Of a DNA stretch of 64,000 nucleotides, positions 25,434 to 34,796 are shown one piece after another (positions within the stretch are counted from its first letter, which is position 1; each line of letters starts with the position of its first letter). The notes under the pieces were generated by a model. It was given only the letters and a program-made list of their open reading frames with translations. It made no database searches and had not been told where the DNA came from. The stretch covers positions 29,687 through 93,686 of IMG/VR virus record IMGVR_UViG_3300024307_000003, one strand, 5' to 3'. The position numbers were made by a program, and so were the translations under genes. The stretch is from a virus.

Positions 25434-27758
25434 TCTCTGTGATGTAAAAATCCACTAATATTTGTAAATTGATTTTGAACTGGTGCCTGTACAGATGCTG
25501 ACATGGCTCCGGCTAATCCTTTAATGTCCACTACTTGTTCTCTAGCGAGGAAATTGAAACACGATGCTGAGCTATCCGCCCAATCAATTTTTACCCGCGC
25601 TGTAGCTTCTTGACCAACAAACTGCTCTAATTCCTTTAAGAAGGCTTCAAGAGATGCTTGGTTTTTGAAAGAGGACTTTACAATCCTCACCAGTCCATTC
25701 ATACATGCAGCAGAAAATGGTTCAAAACGTGTAAGCTTGCTTTTATTTCCCGGCATAGGATCAGCTCTTACAACAAAACCTTTCTCTATAAGTTTTTTTG
25801 CGGACTCAAGAAACTCTGTATCTCCTGCTTGAGCAGGATCGCGGCTGAACACAACGGAACACTCAGGCCCATCTGACTCGGCCTGTTTTTGTATCAGAAG
25901 ATCACGTTCACCCGGAAGCCTTCTGAACTTACCAAAAATACCCGTATCTGCGTCTGTACATTCAGGATGATGATTACCCATCAAATAATAATATCCATCT
26001 TTATCTTTAGCCATATGCGTTGAGGCTGTGTAGTCTGGATACTTATTAATGTCTGTCGGAACTGAAGAGGCTTTATCCCATGCTCTTGCATGTTTAGCGT
26101 TTGCTGGTACTTTATCTACTACAGTCAACCAATCCCTATTGAAATAACTTCCTTCGTTAAGGACGTATTTCCAACACCCATCTAACAATGCAGCTTTCTC
26201 TGCTTTAGTGTTAGCATCAAGAACGTCTGCGTATTCGGGGTTGTTGTCCAACAACTTTTGGTTGTCGGTCAGCTTGGAAGGTATGAAGGTGTAGGTAAGA
26301 GGATTCTTACCGGGGAAGTTAGTGCGGAGTTCTTCTTCACTCCAAGAAGTGAAGAGATTTCCTTCGAAGAATATGAAGTAGCGTATTTTTCCAGACAATT
26401 CCAGAATTGCATAACCATCTTCATCAAGCCAAGGTTCTATCCATTCCTTAATCCAGCAATCAGGTTCAGGGTTACAACTCACCCGAACAAAAGACCTATG
26501 TACGGAAGCAGAACGTGTTCTTGTTCTAACATAATTGAAATGATCGAACTTGAACTGTGTTCCTTCATCGAAATATATACCTGTATACTGAGCACCTTGA
26601 TAAGTCTTCTTGTGCTTATCTAATTCGAGATAAGAAAATTTACAGCTTGCTCCTGAAGGGAATATAATTCTATGGTCTTTCTCTTTTATTCTAGCCTTAC
26701 CTTTAAACTTACCAGTAAGGGGTCCAGAAGTATGAACAAGGAAGGGAAGATAAAGCTCCTGAGCTTCTGGCCATAAAGATTCATCCAGCTGTGTTGTGTT
26801 CTGTCGAAAATAGATAGCTTTGTATTTAGGATCATCTATATACTTCAAGCTATCCATGAGAAGGGCGTAGCTCTTGCCGCCGCCTGCTGCCTATTTGTTT
26901 CTCAAGTCTCCTTGAGGATCGGACTATATCTTCACCCTTTTAGGGGCACCTTGTTTCGGGCTGTAATTACAGCCCTACTCTACTCCCTTCCAGCTATGCC
27001 GTGGTTTCGATAGTCTCTGAACGTAGTTCTTTTGTCAGGTCGCATAACTTCCTGCCAGTAAGAAGTTCACCAATATAGTCTTGTCTGCAATGTAGCCCAA
27101 AGTAATTCTTTATTTCTTTGTAGCTTTTACCTTGTCTGTGCATAACGAATATTGATGTTATCTCATCCATTGATAGGTGAGAAAAGGTCTTACCTTTTGT
27201 TTTTATATTTCCAGTTCTTACAGCGTGACGCACATTCTCATAACCGCTAACATATTCTAAATTTTCGAGCCTGTTGTTGAGTTTTATGCCGTCTTTATGG
27301 TTTACTTGGTGCTTACCTTCTGGTTTTAATATAAATGTTTCAGCAATTAGAATATGCGTCCGTACAGAACGTCTTTTATTGCCATCTACAAGTATAATTT
27401 CTTCGTATCCGTCCCATGTAATTTTACCTTTAAGACGGGCACACCTTTTTCCTTGAATAAAACCTTCACTATCTGCAAAATAACCGGGAAAATTAAAAAT
27501 CTCTTTCTTCAAAAGAACCTCCGCTGCTGATTGTCTAATCTTATTTGTTTTCATACCTTCACGCTCTATGTTACCATACACGTTGTGGTCAAACAAGCTT
27601 TAAAGAGTTTCCAGCAATTAAAGGTGTTTATTTTGACGCATTACTGCGAAAGGTGGCACATTTCTACCACCGTAAAATACTAAATGAATCTCGGTAGGAA
27701 CATTTATGAAAGCCGATTGTGGACCGCGCTGTGGTTGTACAATATAGTATTCACTCAT
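25430..27758 (-). CDS. terL: Terminase large subunit, spliced: exon1 27758-27666, exon2 26890-25430 (517 aa)
   Basis: Joining exons gives ...HLVFYGG|AAGGGKSYALLM (Walker A); FDE Walker B; RAWDKA nuclease motif. Confidence 0.93.
26891..27665 (-). mobile_element. Group I intron (IA-like) in terL
   Basis: P1 GGUGGU/GCCACC with U.G at the splice site; P AAUUGCUGGAAAC 27619-27607; Q AAUCAGCAG 27532-27524; R UCAGAGACUA 27020-27011; S AAGAUAUAGUCC 26932-26921; P9 CUCAAG-GAGA-CUUGAG; terminal G. Confidence 0.95.
26994..27554 (-). CDS. Intron-encoded HNH homing endonuclease
   Basis: HILIAETF...VNHKDGIKLNNRLENLEYV...EN..HA; likely start MKTN at 27554. Confidence 0.9.
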   Translation of the reverse strand: MKTNKIRQSAAEVLLKKEIFNFPGYFADSEGFIQGKRCARLKGKITWDGYEEIILVDGNKRRSVRTHILIAETFILKPEGKHQVNHKDGIKLNNRLENLEYVSGYENVRHAVRTGNIKTKGKTFSHLSMDEITSIFVMHRQGKSYKEIKNYFGLHCRQDYIGELLTGRKLCDLTKELRSETIETTA

Positions 27759-27790: not shown

Positions 27791-29257
27791 TTATTCCCAG
27801 TAATAGTCATACTGGATGTTAGTTGCAATTGTTCCCGAAGTACCTACCGTACCAATATGCTTGACGCACAGCTGAACAAATTCTCCGGGGTTGACATAAA
27901 TCGGGTTCTTAAACGTAGCTACAGGGTTTATTTGAGAAACAATAGTGTTAACAGCTTGTGCAGCTGTCACTGTCTGTGTAAGTTCTGGAAGCAGTACAAT
28001 ACGGCGGGCTTTTGTTGTAGCAGCTTCTGCTGTAGCCAACGATACTGCTGTATGTCCAAACGCCAGAGTAAATATCCGGTTCATAGGTCCACCAGCCAGT
28101 ACAGTTTGAACAAAAGAAGACAACTTAATACCAGTGATAACCAAACGCTTACCTGTTGTGTTGGCACCTGCTGCTGGAACCTGATAAGAATTCAGAATAC
28201 CGTCTGTGTTAACTGCCAACGTAAAAGTTTCCCAAGCCTGACCACCAAGACCGCCCGGTAAGTTTGCAGTGAGGGCAGTGTTAGACGGAACGGCTGCGGT
28301 TGGGTTGGTGGAGTTGGTATAGGTAGCCAAACTACCCATTGTTCCGCCAGTTAAACCTTGGTAACTTCCGTATATACCATTAGCTATATTACCTGCTTCG
28401 CGGGTAATATTCATACCACCTACACGAACGTTATAGTTGGATAGGTTGCAGTTTAGAGTGGCCGAAGCAGCACCACCTACAATTGCGTGCCGCAAGAAAA
28501 CCGGGAGAGCTGGGGAGGCATGTGGTTGTCCTTGACCACTGGGAGTATTTATCACTGCGTAAAGGTCTGTAGATTCACCATCGTTAATCCAGAACTCTGT
28601 GGCCCTGTGGTGAATATAAACAATAAACTGGTATTTCTGGTTAAGAGAGGGGGTAAAGTTCATTACAGAACTAACTCTCTCTGTACCGTTAAAGTTTGAT
28701 ACCCCAAATAAACCTGCCGATGTTACACGGAAATATGCCCCGTCTGTAGGAGCATAGGGGTTCGATGTGGCGTTAAGACCTAAACCAAAATCGACAACTG
28801 TGTTTGCTACTAACCAAGCAGAGAAAGAAATTTCAATATCTGCTGATGTTGTACAAGTTCCGTAAGTAGGAAACGTTGCGTATGTGCGGAAAGATGTTCC
28901 TGTGGTGGTGGTTGTGATATTACCACCATTGGTTTGCATACCAGCAGTACCCCATGTATTTGTCATGGTGGTGTTATGGTATTGATGCTTACCTGTGTTC
29001 TGTGCCGTAGAATTAAGTGTCTCGTCGTCATACATGGTGTCGAGAGCAACCCGAAGACGATAATCTAAATCTGTTTCTGGTGAATACATTTGAGGGTCTG
29101 TTGCAAGGACAGTGCCCGTATCATTCTCAGAATAAATACGAATACCTCCAACAGAGGCAGGTGTATCACTATTTGCTAGAGTAACTTTTGCATAACCGTT
29201 GGCGTCAGCCGTAAGTTCTGTTATTCCACTTCCGAAGCCAATTTTTGCTCCACTCAT
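27791..29257 (-). CDS. Putative virion fibre or receptor-binding protein
   Basis: T/G/A-rich beta protein directly after the collagen gene. Confidence 0.55.
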   Translation of the reverse strand: MSGAKIGFGSGITELTADANGYAKVTLANSDTPASVGGIRIYSENDTGTVLATDPQMYSPETDLDYRLRVALDTMYDDETLNSTAQNTGKHQYHNTTMTNTWGTAGMQTNGGNITTTTTGTSFRTYATFPTYGTCTTSADIEISFSAWLVANTVVDFGLGLNATSNPYAPTDGAYFRVTSAGLFGVSNFNGTERVSSVMNFTPSLNQKYQFIVYIHHRATEFWINDGESTDLYAVINTPSGQGQPHASPALPVFLRHAIVGGAASATLNCNLSNYNVRVGGMNITREAGNIANGIYGSYQGLTGGTMGSLATYTNSTNPTAAVPSNTALTANLPGGLGGQAWETFTLAVNTDGILNSYQVPAAGANTTGKRLVITGIKLSSFVQTVLAGGPMNRIFTLAFGHTAVSLATAEAATTKARRIVLLPELTQTVTAAQAVNTIVSQINPVATFKNPIYVNPGEFVQLCVKHIGTVGTSGTIATNIQYDYYWE

Positions 29258-29258
29258 T

Positions 29259-30227
29259 TTAAATTCCTATACACATAACCGAATACTGGCCTTTAGCCTC
29301 TGCTTCGGAATAGAGGGTTATTGTGAAACCTGTTCCAGCAACAATGTCGCTTACAACAGGTCTGATATTCAGAAGATACATTTCGTCTGGATCAACTCCG
29401 GAGGGGGTTAGAACATTACAAACAACTTCGCTGCTAACACCTACCCAAGATTGTCCTGTTACTATTGTCTGCGCTTTGTCCGTAAAGGAACTACCAAAAT
29501 CACATACAACGTTTACACTACTACCACTTACACCAGCTGGACCAGTAGCGCCCGTAGCGCCTGTTGCACCAGTCTCTCCTTGTATCCCCTGAACGCCTTG
29601 AATGCCCTGAATACCTTGTATTCCCTGCGGACCCTGTAAAGAAGATAATGTTACGATGTTGGTCCACGAAACATCTCCGACATAACGCCACTGAATGTAT
29701 GTACCATTACTTTGAAGCTCTACTTCTCTACCATCAACTCCATTTGTACCTGCCGGACCTTGTATTCCTTGAGCACCAGAAGGCCCTTGAGGGCCAACTT
29801 CGCCTTGTATACCTTGGGGTCCGGTGTTACCCTGAATCCCTTGTGAACCTTGCGGTCCTACTTCTCCCTGTATTCCCTGTATTCCTTGTGGGCCTGTAAT
29901 CTCTGAAAGAAGAATTAAGTTTGTCCAGCTAACATCCCCAACATATCTCCACTGGACGTGTGTAGCAGACTTTTGTAATTCAACTTCCCTTCCATCTACT
30001 CCATCACTTCCGTCAACCCCTGCTGCGCCTGTATCTCCTGTTGGTCCAACCGAACCTGTGGGACCAGTGGCTCCAGTAGGGCCTATAGGCCCTCTTATAC
30101 CTTGTTGGATGGAGGAGACAACACCTCCAGCGTCAACTCCAAAGGAGAGTGTCCCACTATCCCCTTCCTCAAGAAACACTTTCGTGTCAATTGGAGACGA
30201 TTGGAGAATCTTTGTGACAATACTCAC
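29259..30227 (-). CDS. Collagen-like (Gly-X-Y) fibre protein
   Basis: Three Gly-X-Y blocks separated by two copies of DGREVELQ...QWRYVGDVSWTN. Confidence 0.9.
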   Translation of the reverse strand: MSIVTKILQSSPIDTKVFLEEGDSGTLSFGVDAGGVVSSIQQGIRGPIGPTGATGPTGSVGPTGDTGAAGVDGSDGVDGREVELQKSATHVQWRYVGDVSWTNLILLSEITGPQGIQGIQGEVGPQGSQGIQGNTGPQGIQGEVGPQGPSGAQGIQGPAGTNGVDGREVELQSNGTYIQWRYVGDVSWTNIVTLSSLQGPQGIQGIQGIQGVQGIQGETGATGATGATGPAGVSGSSVNVVCDFGSSFTDKAQTIVTGQSWVGVSSEVVCNVLTPSGVDPDEMYLLNIRPVVSDIVAGTGFTITLYSEAEAKGQYSVMCIGI

Positions 30228-30535
30228 TGTGTAACACTCCGAAGAACATTGATTTCAAATGTCTCTGTGTATACGACTTCTGTAGAGGGGAGGGTGTAAC
30301 GAATGTCACAATAGAGAATACATATGGGCCAATCATCTGTAGAGCTGTCTGAGAGAGTGAAAATCCCGTTAACGTTGTCTGTACGTGTGACAGTTAATTG
30401 TGAAACAAGTTTGTTACTCTTGTCTCTAATTTGTGCTGCAATTGTCCAGCTTGCAAAATCGGATGGAACTACTCCATCGGATTTAACGGATATATCACGG
30501 GAGAAGGTGGCTCCACGTTTGTGTGAAATCTGCAT
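30224..30535 (-). CDS. BppU/LtfC-like fibre adaptor
   Basis: KRGATF...WTIAAQIRD...G.FTL...T..W...DIRYT...TETF motif. Confidence 0.65.
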   Translation of the reverse strand: MQISHKRGATFSRDISVKSDGVVPSDFASWTIAAQIRDKSNKLVSQLTVTRTDNVNGIFTLSDSSTDDWPICILYCDIRYTLPSTEVVYTETFEINVLRSVTQ

Positions 30536-30544
30536 GTTCTCTCC

Positions 30545-30577
30545 GAAAGAAAAAAGAAGAGCTACATTTGCAGCTCT
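30545..30577 (-). terminator. Rho-independent terminator
   Basis: AGAGCTGC-AAAT-GTAGCTCT then TCTTTTTTCTTT. Confidence 0.75.
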
Positions 30578-30650
30578 GAGGTAGGAGAGCTAATCTCCTA
30601 TGAGGAGAAAGCTTATCGTTCTTGTTATTGTTCAATGCTTTCTTCGAAAC

Positions 30651-30687
30651 AAAGAAAAGCCCGCAACTAGAAATCTCTAGGCGGGCT
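30651..30687 (-). terminator. Rho-independent terminator ending the tRNA/ncRNA unit
   Basis: AGCCCGC-CTAG-loop-CTAG-TT-GCGGGCT then TTTCTTT. Confidence 0.75.
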
Positions 30688-30800
30688 GAAGGCTCTATAA
30701 CGAGCACCAATAAAAACGGATACGTTAATGTTGGCTATGTCTGCACGGCTGGCACGGCTGTGCTTGTTGTTATTTCCCAAGAGGAGGGCAATGAAATAGT

Positions 30801-31599
30801 TGTGGGTAGTCAGGCCGAACTTCATTTCTGACTCCTGCGACGTTAAGGGTCTGCTTGCAGGCTTTCTCCCTTCGCTTCTACGTGTGGTATCGGATCACCA
30901 ATTTTACCCACACAAATACATTCTCCTAACTAGTATTCAGCCGCTAGGAACCTCCCGGCAACTGTGGAAAATGTATTTATATAGGCACTAGATTTACCAA
31001 CATGCTCTTCGTGGAAACCCACTGTAATATATCCTATGATCTACTCTGTTCTTTCACCAACCACAAAAGTTAACGAACTACTGAGAGTTAGGATATATTA
31101 CGGTGAGGGCCTGTTGATTTCCCTGTTATCAGGCTCAGGGAAGATGCTGGAGGAAATACAGCAAGCATCTCAATTCACTGAATATCTGGATTCTTCCAGT
31201 TTAACATTTATTGATTATGCAGAGTTATACGCTGCAAATAACAATTCTTATAAACCAGAGGATTTTCTTTCCAACCCCTTGTTGGAAAGCTTATTCCTCA
31301 CAACCGCAAGGATTTCTAATTTGTGCAGAACTGGATAACAATCTTTTTTCTCTTGACACGCCATCAATATTTCTATTCATTTCGTGGAATCGGGATTGCT
31401 ATCTCATTCTCTGTCGGCTTTCCTGCTCTTCCAACATCATCTTAGGCGCGACCTAAGCACCATCGAATTTACGTTAGGCGTTGTTGTGTTTCAGCAAGCC
31501 TAGTCCCGGCAGGCCACGCGCATAGCGTCCGGTCTTCTCTACTATCATTGATCACTGCATCAACACAAAGCTGTGATTTTCGAGTAGTCTCTACGTAAA
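30801..31599 (-). ncRNA. Array of structured non-coding RNA domains downstream of the tRNAs (unassigned)
   Basis: Multiple long closing helices, multi-way junctions and loop-loop complementarity; no credible ORF. Confidence 0.6.
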
Positions 31600-31670
31600 A
31601 CTTTTAATATTCTGGTGGCGTTTTATGACGCGAATATCAGCAGACGCTGCCCGTCGCACGGGGCCATAAT

Positions 31671-31745
31671 TGGTGTTCGTGCAGAGAATTGAACTCTGAT
31701 TAACAGGTTGAAAACCTGCTGTCCTCACCATTGGACGACACGAAC
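31671..31745 (-). tRNA. tRNA-Glu(TTC)
   Basis: Cloverleaf GTTCGTG/CACGAAC; loop TT-TTC-AA; encoded CCA. Confidence 0.93.
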
Positions 31746-31751
31746 AATATT

Positions 31752-31825
31752 TGGAGCGGGAAGAGGGGTTCGAACCCTCGCTATCAACTTGGAAGGATGA
31801 AGTGCTACCATTACACCATTCCCGC
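31752..31825 (-). tRNA. tRNA-Gly(TCC)
   Basis: GCGGGAA/TTCCCGC; loop CT-TCC-AA; U73; CCA. Confidence 0.93.
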
Positions 31826-31830
31826 AAATT

Positions 31831-31906
31831 TGGTGCTGCCATCAGGACTCGAACCTGAAACCTACCGCTTACGAAACGGTTGCTCTACCAGTTGAGCTAC
31901 AGCAGC
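31831..31906 (-). tRNA. tRNA-Thr(CGT)
   Basis: GCTGCTG/TGGCAGC; loop TT-CGT-AA; CCA. Confidence 0.92.
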
Positions 31907-31914
31907 ATACTTCG

Positions 31915-32040
31915 TGGGGGAGGCTGGAGTCGAACCAGCAAGCCAGATAAACTACTCACAAGGCTTAAAGCCGGCTGCCTTGTTTTCACTCACGAGACTA
32001 CCCCTCTCTGGGGCTGCGTATCCCATTCCGCCACTCCCCC
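31915..32040 (-). ncRNA. tRNA-like RNA with Leu-type D arm and 76-nt expanded centre
   Basis: Acceptor GGGGGAG/CTCCCCC-A; D arm GCG-GAATGGGATA-CGC; T arm GCTGG-TTCGACT-CCAGC. Confidence 0.75.
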
Positions 32041-32046
32041 GTAATT

Positions 32047-32123
32047 TGGTCGGAGATACAGGATTTGAACCTGTGACATTTTGCTCCCAAAGCAAACGCG
32101 CTACCAGACTGCGCTAATCTCCA
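32047..32123 (-). tRNA. tRNA-Pro(TGG)
   Basis: TGGAGAT/ATCTCCG; loop TT-TGG-GA; CCA. Confidence 0.93.
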
Positions 32124-32128
32124 ATAAA

Positions 32129-32459
32129 CGATCCGGACACCACTTGGAAACAACAACGTTGTCCCTCGGCCCGCCTTGGCGCGAGCACAGGGAAGAGTAT
32201 GAATCCTCCCTGCTGGGTAGCGCTCGATCTCATCCGGTGTTCCCTTTTCAGGGAGTCGCTACGTTCGTGTGTCCAGAAGGGGAGGAACTATGTTCCCACG
32301 AATCTTCTGGCACGCAATTGATTAATCTTAAAATGTGCCTACCCGAAGTTACCTTCCGTCTGCAAGCAACAAACTCCCTTGTCAGTTCAAGGGAAGGTAG
32401 GGCTTAAGTCATCACCGGTATGGAGGCCGGGAGAGGTGTCCTCAGAAGATGGAACACAT
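32129..32459 (-). ncRNA. Structured non-coding RNA domains upstream of tRNA-Pro (unassigned)
   Basis: Nested helices with GNRA tetraloops (TCCCT-GAAA-AGGGA, GAAG-GTAA-CTTC). Confidence 0.6.
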
Positions 32460-32488
32460 AATTAACAAACTTCCCTATTTGTATTTAC

Positions 32489-32517
32489 ATCCTAGCAGAT
32501 TATTTTCTGTTTGTCAA
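32489..32517 (-). promoter_or_regulatory. Sigma70 promoter for the tRNA/ncRNA unit
   Basis: TTGACA-17 bp-TAGGAT with extended -10 TG. Confidence 0.8.
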
Positions 32518-32533
32518 CACCCAATCTGAAATT

Positions 32534-32839
32534 TTATACAGCTACAGGGAAGCGTCTGAATTCGGCTACAACACCTTTCCCAACTTCCTGCTTACGCTCT
32601 TCTTCCCTGTTGGCAGGTTCGCCCATAAGCTTCTCAGCAGCTTGGGCGTACAGCCAATGCAGCTTCAGGATTTTATCCAGAATCCCAGCACGAGTAGCAG
32701 GATTAACCGCAGGATCAAACGCCAGCTTCGACATGGCCTCGTAGGCAGGAACTGCGTCTTTGTTCACCAGATCCTGAAGCTCTGTGATATTGTCAAATGT
32801 CTTCTTGGCTGCTCTTACATTCTTGGATACATTAGCCAT
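32534..32839 (-). CDS. Hypothetical protein, possible terminase small subunit
   Basis: Helical 101 aa, upstream of and co-oriented with terL; function inferred from position only. Confidence 0.4.
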   Translation of the reverse strand: MANVSKNVRAAKKTFDNITELQDLVNKDAVPAYEAMSKLAFDPAVNPATRAGILDKILKLHWLYAQAAEKLMGEPANREEERKQEVGKGVVAEFRRFPVAV

Positions 32840-33134
32840 CTAATTCTTCTTCCTCTCCTGAATCTCTTAGGGCTTGTAGAACATTTTCTAATAGCTCTAT
32901 CAACACCCATGTATCTTGTGTATTGCTTTGGATCAGTTTGTAATTGCTATCATCTTGTAACACTGTAAGTCCTACAGTGGGTTTGAAGTCGTATTCGTTC
33001 CCCTCCTCGTCTCGGAGGTAGATAGCGTTCTCTTCAAGGGCTACTACTAAACTAGCTAGGTTGTTTAGGATGTTCTCTATCTCATCGGCAACAGGAGGAG
33101 AGGAACGTTTGAACTCAAGAATCTTTCCAGACAT
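32832..33134 (-). CDS. Hypothetical acidic protein
   Basis: SD GAGGA; overlaps the next gene. Confidence 0.65.
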   Translation of the reverse strand: MSGKILEFKRSSPPVADEIENILNNLASLVVALEENAIYLRDEEGNEYDFKPTVGLTVLQDDSNYKLIQSNTQDTWVLIELLENVLQALRDSGEEEELDG

Positions 33135-33378
33135 ACTACCAATCCTCTTGTTGTTTTAATCCAGATAAGTTAAAATCTAAAAGAAAGAAAAAGAACCAAA
33201 AAGAAAGAAAATAACTAAATAAGTATATAATACTATAATCTATACATAGCTTTGTACTATACCTTGCTATACTATGCGTTGCTACTTCTTAACCTACTAA
33301 GGAAACTCACTACGTTCGTTTCTATTCCTTGCTTAGGCGGACAATATCGTTTCACTCATTGTCCTGTTCAGTAGGACC

Positions 33379-33407
33379 ATTTTAGCAATAATTTTTTAGT
33401 TTGTCAA
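33379..33407 (-). promoter_or_regulatory. Sigma70 promoter (leftward)
   Basis: TTGACA-17 bp-TAAAAT with TG extension. Confidence 0.8.
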
Positions 33408-33634
33408 TACCTAATTACTAATCTTTACAAAATTAATACTAATTAGTTACATTAGTGTATACTTTATTTACTAGTTGGATTAGGAAAAGATTCGTTAGCT
33501 GTAGACTCTACGCTTCGCTTCGTAGTCTACTTGAAGCTGTGTCCTAGTGAGTCGGACACAGCGAATATAATATAATAATAAAGTAACTTAACTAATATCT
33601 TTGGTGTAAATCTCTTCTTCAAAGAAGAATTGTC

Positions 33635-33662
33635 TTGACTTTGTGTCAGAATCTGCTAAGAT
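33635..33662 (+). promoter_or_regulatory. Sigma70 promoter (rightward)
   Basis: TTGACT-16 bp-TAAGAT with TG extension. Confidence 0.7.
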
Positions 33663-33706
33663 TTGAACATGGGAACTGTTTGTAAAACAAACTGAATGGA
33701 GGAATA

Positions 33707-33874
33707 ATGATCAGTTATTACATTGGTGTATTACAGGACTACCTATCCGAATTTGGACATTTCGTAAACTCCTGTGTTGACAGAATTCTGATGTGGGTGT
33801 TCAATGCAAAGACCCCTGACGCATTGTTCGGAAACATGATCGAATGGGTGGAGAGAACTATCGCATCTAACTAA
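33707..33874 (+). CDS. Hypothetical protein, 55 aa (below ORF-track cutoff)
   Basis: GGAGG SD; MISYYIGVLQDYL... Confidence 0.6.
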   Translation: MISYYIGVLQDYLSEFGHFVNSCVDRILMWVFNAKTPDALFGNMIEWVERTIASN

Positions 33875-33892
33875 TACAACTAGGAGAATTGA

Positions 33893-34796
33893 GTGAATAA
33901 AGATCGAGCATTGGTGTTACAGATGGCTTTGGAGGAGCAATGCCTCCTACGCACACAGGAAGAAATCATCAAGGACGAGATACGAAAGCTCCCGAGCAAA
34001 TACATCCCCGAAGCAGCCAAAGAACGTAATTACATTATGAGCTGTTTCAACCTCTGGACAGAATATGAGCTATACCGTTTCTGTCAATCAACCCAAACTA
34101 ATATTGGGGAAATCAAGAAAAGATCACGTTACGAAGAATAACTACAACAAGGAGAAGTATGAAATACGCTACAGTTTACAAATGGGTAAGTATCTACGAT
34201 TTAATGCGTGTAGGATATGACTTTAAGATTGTTCCCCCTGAAACATCTCAAGACGATTACAAGATTGAATACATCACCCATTGTGGAATGGGGATGACCC
34301 TCGAAACATTCAAAGAACAGCTCTGGCACCTCGGTATTGACACTTCCGTTGCTTTCCTGATGAAGAGCAGCATCCATCGTTCTGTGCAAGATGGGAAACG
34401 CCAGTTTGGCCTTCGCTTTGGTGGCTTGGAACGAGAAGACAATGATTGGATTCAAAGCGGTTTTGCCACTAAGGAAGTGATTATGAAGATGTCTAATTTC
34501 CACGATATGGACGAAGTGGACGAAGCCTTGTCTAATGGGAATAGGGAGGGGTACTAATGTCTATCACGAAAGAAGAAGTTCTTAATTATTTTAAGAAGGT
34601 GGAAGAATACCGGAAAGAGCTTGATGCTCAAATGGCCTTGCCGGATATTGATAGGGTGTTTCATACAGCCTTGAAAACTCTCCCTCCAGATATTCTTGAT
34701 TACGATTTTCAAGAGTGGGGCACGATGATTCGACGGAGTATTACATTTGCTACACAGTTTGTTAATACCTTTGATTTATCGCAAGGACGTGAGTGA
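33893..34796 (+). CDS. Three hypothetical proteins (33893-34141, 34159-34557, 34557-34796)
   Basis: Tightly packed ORFs with GGAG SDs. Confidence 0.7.

Follow-up and report, generated by a model that had tools for sequence, protein, structure and literature searches.

The DNA analysed here, a window of 64,000 nt, comes from an uncultured river phage, and on its minus strand the stretch 30545-32517 is a phage tRNA operon. The evidence supports a promoter-to-terminator unit that consists mostly of non-coding sequence: four canonical tRNAs and one tRNA-Leu look-alike are accompanied by ~1.4 kb of untranslated flanks, and ~70% of the unit consists of sequence that encodes neither tRNA nor protein. 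Its upstream end is marked by a sigma-70-type promoter (32489..32517, minus strand; TTGACA-17-TAGGAT with an extended -10 TG, 10/12 matches) that a sequence-only reading of the window had already recognized, and the position of this promoter places the expected transcription start at ~32482. A second promoter of sigma-70 type was found at 33407-33379, upstream of two small ORFs. Both terminators proposed in the same reading were also confirmed on the minus strand. T1 (30651..30687), read from the sequence, combines a GCCCGC / GCGGGC outer stem with a CTAGA / TCTAG inner stem followed by UUUUCUUU, and the 160-nt segment covering this region (30560-30719) has a folding z-score of -4.5. T2 (30558..30577) is an 8-bp stem followed by UCUUUUUUCU and precedes the start codon of a 103-aa gene by 22 nt. 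The strand-switch region at 33135-34158, 2 kb off, bears an AT-rich structured element of its own. A riverine metatranscriptome (RNA run X2) contained 0.40 of the sampled words, and groundwater and drinking-water runs contained 0.21-0.23, values that are word shares and serve as leads only.

The four canonical tRNAs, all on the minus strand and all with an encoded CCA, were called by ARAGORN, by Rfam and by a tRNA covariance model of our own, which was built from 90 tRNAs of relatives and run with filters off. They are tRNA-Pro (UGG; 32047..32123; 75.3 bits with our model), tRNA-Thr (CGU; 31831..31906; 73.8 bits), tRNA-Gly (UCC; 31752..31825; 65.4 bits) and tRNA-Glu (UUC; 31671..31745; 66.7 bits), with anticodons taken from ARAGORN and scores of 64-68 bits against Rfam model RF00005, for which the threshold is 29. 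Together they span 302 nt, in agreement with the ~300 nt of canonical tRNA estimated in the sequence-only reading. At the gathering threshold these four tRNAs were the only Rfam matches in the stretch, with no other family represented, and a cmscan search of positions 30000-33000 with permissive filters added only scattered weak sub-threshold matches up to E = 10. From the gathering threshold to E = 10, no Rfam match was obtained for tmRNA, RNase P RNA, SRP RNA, 6S RNA, hammerhead, HDV-like or twister RNAs, and ARAGORN found no tmRNA, which bears out the earlier statement that tmRNA, RNase P, SRP, hammerhead and HDV-like signatures are absent. An HDV-like or theta ribozyme 3' of tRNA-Glu was considered and rejected (P1 partner absent by inspection, Rfam without match), as was a diversity-generating retroelement (DGR) template or other repeat, the genome being without self-similarity.

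Element B, a tRNA-like RNA of 127 nt (31915..32041, minus strand), was delineated from its sequence and from an alignment with tRNA-Leu genes of related arrays. Its acceptor stem is a perfect 7 bp (GGGGGAG / CTCCCCC) with A73, its D arm is of the Leu type and aligns with those tRNA-Leu genes, and its T arm is canonical (GCTGG-TTCGACT-CCAGC). Where a tRNA has its anticodon and variable region, element B has ~76 nt between the D and T arms, comprising a GCCCC-AGAGA-GGGGU hairpin (5-nt loop AGAGA) and then further helices. There is no 7-nt anticodon loop. At the 3' end (A-CGA), CCA is not encoded, and the sequence there recurs as a direct repeat where tRNA-Gly and tRNA-Thr end. Element B was called neither by ARAGORN nor by the Rfam tRNA model, and produced partial matches only, to tRNA-Sec (Rfam, 19.4 bits) and to our own tRNA model (11.9 bits). 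It is a tRNA-Leu derivative in which the top half of the molecule (acceptor, T and D) is retained, and it is unable to decode. Since bacterial LeuRS does not read the anticodon, element B, with its A73, could possibly be charged without decoding. A second tRNA locus of the same genome bears further tRNA-like minis.

Much of the remaining sequence had been described in the sequence-only reading as consecutive self-contained folds with GNRA loops. When compared with shuffled sequences, this description held for the leader, for two hairpins (H1 and H2) and for a hairpin cluster at 31300-31170, but not for the four-way junctions at 31599-31468 (z -0.75) and 30912-30801 (z -1.9) or the segments 31670-31600 (z -0.5) and 31200-31110 (z -0.9), none of which folded better than shuffles. 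The untranslated leader (~360 nt; 32124..32482, minus strand) is structured by both fold z-score and GNRA count. Over 365 nt (32488-32124) its minimum free energy is -127 kcal/mol (z -3.5, 0/100 shuffles as stable), and the operon strand folds better than the opposite strand (z -1.8). Within the leader lie a terminator-like hairpin (32395-32374) and a long-range closing helix of 7 bp between 32441 and 32135. The leader is also the only part in which GNRA tetraloops are enriched (2 observed vs 0.29 expected, p about 0.04), which qualifies the earlier claim about such loops.

The untranslated trailer (~980 nt; 30690..31670, minus strand) was characterized by z-score, blastn and the tRNA model. 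Taken whole (971 nt), its z-score does not lie far outside the range of eight coding controls of trailer length (+0.8 to -3.45) and is alike on both strands (-4.8 on the operon strand, -5.5 on the plus strand). Decayed tRNA genes in the trailer were rejected as a candidate because the covariance model of 90 relatives' tRNAs, with filters off, found no tRNA remnant above 6 bits in either leader or trailer. The hairpin cluster at 31170..31300 (minus strand) contains a perfect 9-bp stem (CUUUCCAAC / GUUGGAAAG) and is strand-neutral, as its z-score is -3.4 on the minus strand and -5.1 on the plus strand; when read on the plus strand, it scans terminator-like.

Hairpin H1 (31016..31109, minus strand) has an AU-rich closing stem of 5 + 13 + 5 bp, whose outer arms are 94% complementary, around an inner helix of 10 bp with four G.U pairs. 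Its energy of -32.7 kcal/mol (z -5.1) was reached by 0/200 shuffles and is about equal on the plus strand, and because of this equal stability H1 is possibly a DNA-level palindrome. Hairpin H2 (30903..30989, minus strand) has an uninterrupted 22-bp stem with four G.U pairs and an inner hairpin of 7 bp + 4 bp. Its stability depends on the strand, with -40.1 kcal/mol and z -6.85 on the operon strand vs -17.6 kcal/mol and z -2.1 on the plus strand, and all four non-Watson-Crick positions of the stem are G.U on the operon strand only. A plus-strand reading of 30603-31124 was rejected, as H2 is much weaker when read that way. Measured against the length of an RNase III stalk (at least 20 bp, about two turns), H2 offers 22 consecutive pairs and H1 5 + 13 + 5 pairs, making H2 a candidate stalk of the RNase III type. 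The two hairpins have stems unlike each other, and exact two-arm patterns of either stem gave no match in IMG/VR. Overall, stability resides mainly in the leader and a small number of local hairpins rather than in one large fold, and the data support an operon that carries, besides its tRNAs, several truly stable RNA elements, at least one of them operon-strand-specific.

Two arrangements had been proposed in the sequence-only reading, the first being one large non-coding RNA with the tRNAs in a linker. GOLLD and ROOL are large ornate RNAs that phages carry close to tRNAs (PMC5737381; bioRxiv 10.1101/2024.12.08.627333), and the present locus resembles them as a phage non-coding RNA beside tRNA genes. 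However, neither model (GOLLD, RF01998; ROOL, RF03087) was matched up to E = 10 in the cmscan of 30000-33000, and stability here is local, so that a single large RNA is not supported. The second arrangement, a battery of RNAs released by tRNA processing, best fits the layout and has a precedent in phage T4, whose RNAs C and D carry tRNA-like ends and are freed by tRNA-processing enzymes. Both are products of the T4 tRNA region and have no known role (PMC3014915). As in T4, a phage tRNA transcription unit here includes non-tRNA sequence, but the two regions have no sequence kinship, and the non-tRNA part is far larger in the present operon.

Homologues of the non-tRNA parts were sought at several levels. 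Against 50,697 GenBank phage records, blastn of the whole stretch matched the tRNAs only, and neither the leader alone nor the trailer alone gave a match. A megablast search with the 16 kb around the stretch left the non-tRNA parts without a homologue, blastn and tblastx against 150 related loci (fetched via TerL and its 488-aa neighbour) left the window without a match, and an all-against-all comparison of tRNA-masked arrays returned none for its non-tRNA spacers. Exact-pattern scans were negative for the 5' half of element B in IMG/VR, for two patterns in JGI contigs (the H2 apex and the junction of tRNA-Thr with tRNA-Gly) and, in GTDB genomes, for the D arm of element B, and single-protein locus searches (TerL, 103-aa and 101-aa proteins) in IMG/VR yielded no close relative. 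The leader and trailer thus gave no homologue in GenBank phages, IMG/VR or JGI contigs. It is only in Logan or ENA contigs that the closest relatives of TerL (84% and 82%) and of the 488-aa protein (78% and 77%) occur, and TerL relatives at 71% and 70% are encoded there too. The 488-aa protein is a poor marker, being common to otherwise unrelated phages, and the sequence of L082, the best relative among those retrieved (TerL 63%), begins with TerL itself and so lacks the upstream region. The terminase was also considered as split or intron-bearing, which was rejected because TerL homologues are equal in length.

TerL is 42-44% identical to that of phAPEC8/rV5-like phages, and many TerL relatives in IMG/VR have a same-strand set of 4-23 tRNAs that precedes TerL by 2-7 kb. 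In phAPEC8, a divergent region is followed by three small ORFs, 11 tRNAs in 2 kb without CDS, small ORFs, TerL and portal, and here too a tRNA cluster lies on the TerL strand, upstream of a homologous TerL and after small ORFs past a divergent region. This context, which the sequence-only reading had missed, marks the locus as the tRNA-array locus of the phAPEC8/rV5-like lineage in reduced form. The likeness to these myoviruses (Stephanstirmvirinae and relatives) includes array position and strand, upstream of the terminase-portal module, a span of ~2 kb without CDS, non-tRNA gaps inside the array and, in some relatives (L096, L120 and L132), the same Thr-Gly-Glu tRNA order. Related arrays all have such gaps (150-640 nt), which hold conserved non-tRNA elements, one of them a stem-closed hairpin. 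In contrast, the arrays of phAPEC8/rV5-like phages contain 11-23 tRNAs vs four here, where ~70% is non-tRNA; they share no sequence with the present leader or trailer, and the conserved motif of relatives' arrays is absent from this operon.

Taken together, the locus is probably a phage tRNA operon, a reduced phAPEC8/rV5-like array whose stable flanking parts serve as processing or stability elements. In those myoviruses, the array has several small early ORFs on one side and the module of terminase and virion genes on the other. We infer that host RNA polymerase most likely starts near 32482 at the sigma-70-type promoter, that read-through from the promoter at 33407 probably adds transcription, and that transcription most likely stops at T1 and T2, which would give a primary transcript of ~1.83 kb. 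RNase P and 3' trimming would then release four decoding tRNAs (Pro-UGG, Thr-CGU, Gly-UCC and Glu-UUC), and the same processing would release the 127-nt, non-decoding tRNA-Leu derivative. Of the stable parts, the leader fold and especially the long stems H1 and H2 most likely help to process and stabilize the RNA, as double-stranded RNase III-type stalks that would cut the long transcript and protect the ends of the pieces. Known RNase III stalks include the leader-trailer stems of rRNA operons and the sites in phage T7 early transcripts. H2 (~22 bp) and H1 (~23 bp in segments) resemble these in length, in their place inside a long polycistronic RNA and in their folded interior; however, the predicted H1 and H2 stems enclose ~40-50 nt and not a large RNA. 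Cleavage at the stalks may also free small RNAs of unknown use.

One open reading frame complicates the picture of an RNA-only operon. A possible ORF of 52 codons (30667..30825, minus strand) has an AGGAG 6 nt before its ATG and its stop codon inside T1, and could be a real small protein gene, with the nearby structure acting as its translational control and terminator. Such a gene is doubtful, and this account of the region somewhat unlikely. The ORF was called by the source's gene caller (it has a record in the protein collection), and phAPEC8 also has small ORFs directly after its array, but among 1.84 billion representative proteins the only match was to itself, and Pfam and PHROGs gave no match for this or any other ORF in the stretch. 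With codon log-odds of 5.3, it ranks among the top 1-5% of shadow ORFs (95th to 99th percentile), a score that chance could still reach. Because it covers only 159/1,973 nt, the ORF cannot explain the rest of the stretch. The earlier claim that the region has no credible ORF is thus upheld by the domain searches and qualified by this one borderline case, which slightly weakens the "RNA-only" label.

Alternatively, the non-tRNA parts (the leader, the H1- and H2-closed cassettes and the tRNA-Leu mimic) may be new functional structured RNAs acting in trans, for example as decoys or sponges against host defences that target tRNAs or sense RNA, with the tRNAs as release punctuation. Phage tRNAs counter anticodon nucleases, PARIS and retron effectors (PMC10264068, PMC11464382, PMC11555353), which lends this idea a known background, but no target or partner gene was identified here. 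While two features are consistent with such RNAs, namely that a compact phage genome dedicates a strong promoter to ~1.4 kb of non-coding sequence and that the stability of H2 and of the leader is specific to the operon strand, half of the proposed modules are no more stable than shuffles, and the H1 and H2 stems differ, with neither recurring in IMG/VR. Element B, with perfect acceptor, D and T arms and a replaced anticodon domain, and the further tRNA-like minis at the genome's second tRNA locus also argue for RNAs acting in trans; against this, no homologue, and therefore no covariation, is available. On balance, we consider a trans-acting role unlikely. Quite unlikely is its more specific form, in which the operon would be a delivery vehicle for new phage RNAs (a ~300-nt leader, at least two stalk-closed RNAs and a possibly chargeable tRNA-Leu mimic) that would be freed by tRNA-processing enzymes and RNase III and serve as decoys against tRNA-targeting or RNA-sensing defences. 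That the flanks represent a new RNA family is possible but unproven.

It also seems rather improbable that the leader and trailer are mostly functionless spacer left by a larger ancestral array, with hairpins that are incidental or leftover terminator or processing signals. In relatives, this position is taken by arrays of comparable or greater size with 11-23 tRNAs, several modules have z-scores near zero and no conservation was shown, yet the covariance model of 90 tRNAs found nothing above 6 bits in leader or trailer. Likewise, element B resembles a damaged tRNA-Leu without CCA, but it is altered in the anticodon domain only, which is not uniform decay, and the continuous 22 bp of H2, in which every non-Watson-Crick pair is a G.U on the transcribed strand, differ from what random decay predicts. 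Finally, H1 and the neighbouring inverted repeats are very unlikely to act as DNA (a replication origin, packaging site or protein-binding palindrome): although H1 and the 31170-31300 cluster are equally or more stable on the plus strand, the trailer z-score is alike on both strands and the site lies upstream of packaging genes, H2 and the inner helix of H1 need G.U pairs that are present in operon-strand RNA only, iterons and direct repeats are absent, and the strand-switch region with its AT-rich structured element lies 2 kb away (33135-34158).

The locus is a single orphan sequence and as such a lead rather than a discovery. Phage tRNA clusters are usually annotated as tRNAs alone. If the pieces described here are stable RNAs, they would strengthen the case for RNA cargo other than tRNAs in phage tRNA operons, and the operon would provide a compact case for testing the role of a tRNA "top-half" mimic.

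The minus-strand stretch 30545-32517 of this river phage, whose IMG/VR virus record spans 93.7 kb and is ~69% complete, is bracketed by a sigma-70-type promoter (32517-32489; TTGACA-17-TAGGAT with a TG extension; promoter scan) and two intrinsic terminators, T1 (30687-30651), read by eye from the sequence, and T2 (30577-30558), found by terminator scan. ARAGORN, Rfam and our own covariance model (trained on 90 tRNAs from related phages) each identified four canonical tRNAs on the minus strand, namely tRNA-Pro-UGG (32123-32047), tRNA-Thr-CGU (31906-31831), tRNA-Gly-UCC (31825-31752) and tRNA-Glu-UUC (31745-31671), each with an encoded CCA. Rfam returned nothing beyond the tRNAs at gathering thresholds, and the extra matches from a permissive scan to E = 10 were weak, sub-threshold and not credited. 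Thus, the sequence-only reading was correct on the promoter and terminators, the tRNAs and the lack of other known RNA families.

Downstream, the same strand encodes a 103-aa ORF product, a collagen-like fibre protein, a conserved 488-aa protein, an HNH endonuclease, TerL and the portal; upstream, it carries a pair of small ORFs (33134-32832 and 32839-32534, both minus strand) served by a separate promoter at 33407. The TerL shares 42-44% identity with its counterparts in phAPEC8-like phages, and in phAPEC8 itself the layout is comparable: a divergent region is followed by three small ORFs, 11 tRNAs in 2 kb without CDS, small ORFs, TerL and portal. Many IMG/VR contigs with this TerL family carry 4-23 tRNAs on the same strand, 2-7 kb upstream of TerL, and the tRNA order Thr-Gly-Glu is also found in three related loci (L096, L120 and L132). 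Because relatives and phAPEC8 carry tRNAs at this position and the Thr-Gly-Glu order recurs, 30545-32517 is, judging by gene order, the tRNA-array locus of the lineage, in this phage poor in tRNAs and rich in non-tRNA sequence.

The HNH endonuclease is a free-standing ORF (26994-27596, minus strand) between the 488-aa gene and TerL; a split terminase was ruled out, TerL being full length relative to its homologues. The 488-aa protein (27791-29257, minus strand) had no sequence match in Pfam, PHROG or PDB and has >2,400 metagenome homologues (54-82% identity), also in phage contigs that otherwise share no gene with this phage. Its gene often follows a collagen-like fibre gene and is sometimes tandemly duplicated (L003, L065), and the protein resembles a mobile module of the virion or fibre. 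Synteny across the fibre and 488-aa module was seen in a single IMG/VR contig, L002, where a non-coding segment (L002:300-400) upstream of a 110-aa ORF contains a T-arm-like GGTTCAAGTCC motif that ends with CCA; the contig end truncates this segment, and neither ARAGORN nor Rfam called a tRNA there. Transcription switches direction within an ORF-free divergent region (33135-34158). Immediately 5' of the promoter at 33407-33379, this region includes an AT-rich minus-strand segment (33450-33595) that contains two strong hairpins, one of them with a perfect 9-bp stem (GCUGUGUCC / GGACACAGC). The segment, with a folding z of -4.0 on the minus and -2.5 on the plus strand, may be a control region or an origin.

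No ORF within 30545-32517 matched Pfam or PHROGs, and tblastx of the stretch against 150 related loci gave tRNA-derived matches only. A codon log-odds score trained on 41 long ORFs of this phage genome picked a single candidate, a 52-codon ORF on the operon strand (30825-30667) that ranked at the 95th-99th percentile of shadow ORFs, with an AGGAG 6 nt upstream of its ATG and its stop codon within T1. When compared to 1.84 billion representative proteins it matched its own record only and no homologue. This ORF, which would span 8% of the stretch, is rather unlikely to be a real gene.

The sequence-only reading had also proposed an array of unexplained structured RNAs, which was only partly borne out by predicted thermodynamics of a single orphan sequence. 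The 365-nt leader 5' of the tRNAs (folded as 32488-32124) reached -127 kcal/mol versus -108.6 +/- 5.2 kcal/mol for shuffled sequences (z = -3.5; 0 of 100 as stable; opposite strand z = -1.8), and contains two GNRA tetraloops where 0.29 are expected. Two adjacent hairpins with different stems in the trailer (31670-30690, 3' of the tRNAs) also outperformed shuffles: H1 (31109-31016; z = -5.1) and H2 (30989-30903; z = -6.85). The H2 stem has 22 unbroken pairs, all four non-Watson-Crick positions being G.U on the operon strand, and its DNA folds to -40.1 kcal/mol on that strand versus -17.6 kcal/mol on the plus strand; together, these features argue for H2 as a putative RNA-level element on the tRNA strand. 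Folding of H1 and of a cluster at 31300-31170 was strand-neutral. Neither the H1 nor the H2 stem recurred in an exact-pattern scan of IMG/VR. Conversely, two proposed "four-way junctions" (z = -0.75 and -1.9) and two more drawn segments were no better than shuffles. The z-score of the whole trailer (-4.8) adds little, since eight equal-length coding controls reached -3.45 and the plus strand gave -5.5.

In element B (32041-31915), between the Pro and Thr tRNAs, the 7-bp acceptor stem is perfect, the discriminator is A, the T arm is canonical and the D arm aligns with tRNA-Leu genes from related arrays. About 76 nt separate its D and T arms, starting with a hairpin of 5 bp and a 5-nt loop; the gene encodes no CCA, and neither ARAGORN, Rfam tRNA nor our own tRNA model called it. 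By its sequence, element B is best described as a tRNA-Leu derivative that would be unable to decode normally. With the damage limited to the anticodon domain and the three other arms perfect, a retained "top half" is a better reading than uniform decay. Outside the window, the phage carries another tRNA locus (L158; G000:C1:25700-27000), in which an unusual 92-nt tRNA-Met call, a 159-aa ORF and tRNA-Leu (UAA) are accompanied by two tRNA-like minis whose acceptor and T arms are intact and which ARAGORN misses. In the first (L158:991-1069; 30 bits), a 7-bp acceptor stem, T arm and CCA are combined with aberrant D and anticodon regions, and the second (L158:844-901) has little besides acceptor stem and T arm.

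Leader and trailer had no match among 50,697 GenBank phage records or in the 150 related loci, and exact-pattern scans found nothing in IMG/VR, JGI contigs or GTDB genomes; closer relatives are known from Logan or ENA contigs only. A riverine metatranscriptome shares 0.40 of sampled words and is a lead only. Arrays of relatives have non-tRNA gaps of 150-640 nt, some with elements conserved between divergent phages. One such element within tRNA arrays of rV5/phAPEC8-like phages (L087:5482-5571 and L120:5431-5519) has a 12-bp closing stem with compensatory differences between both loci; the 37-nt interior of the stem is almost the same in the two, and a U run comes next. The element occurs unannotated in 62 GenBank phage records. 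Several divergent arrays share a ~50-nt motif (CGAACGUAG ... GUCACUGUCCCA) in the Thr-Gly gap (L091:6718-6810, L120:5227-5322, L132:5362-5406 and L103:707-754), followed in L091 and L120 by a TTGACA-17-TATAGT or TAGAGT promoter; the motif is absent from the window.

Overall, we somewhat favor a tRNA operon that would be transcribed into one long primary RNA and then processed to give the four tRNAs and the tRNA-Leu mimic, with the leader fold and the two stalks, H1 and H2, as putative RNase III-type processing and stability elements that may also release small RNAs. The T4 tRNA region is a known analogue, a tRNA unit that also yields non-tRNA RNAs (RNA C and RNA D, role unknown; PMC3014915). 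The more novel reading, trans-acting decoy RNAs, builds on the established action of phage tRNAs against tRNA-targeting defences (PMC10264068, PMC11464382, PMC11555353) and is possible but unsupported. Were leader and trailer left from lost tRNA genes in a decayed array, H2 would be unexplained; moreover, our own tRNA model with filters off found nothing above 6 bits in either, and therefore any lost tRNA genes left no trace. Neither the permissive Rfam scan nor the local folding tests supported a single large GOLLD- or ROOL-like ncRNA, which the first interpretation had offered. The tRNA operon of this phage is real and somewhat unusual, carrying a small number of truly stable RNA elements as well as a tRNA-Leu look-alike incapable of decoding.
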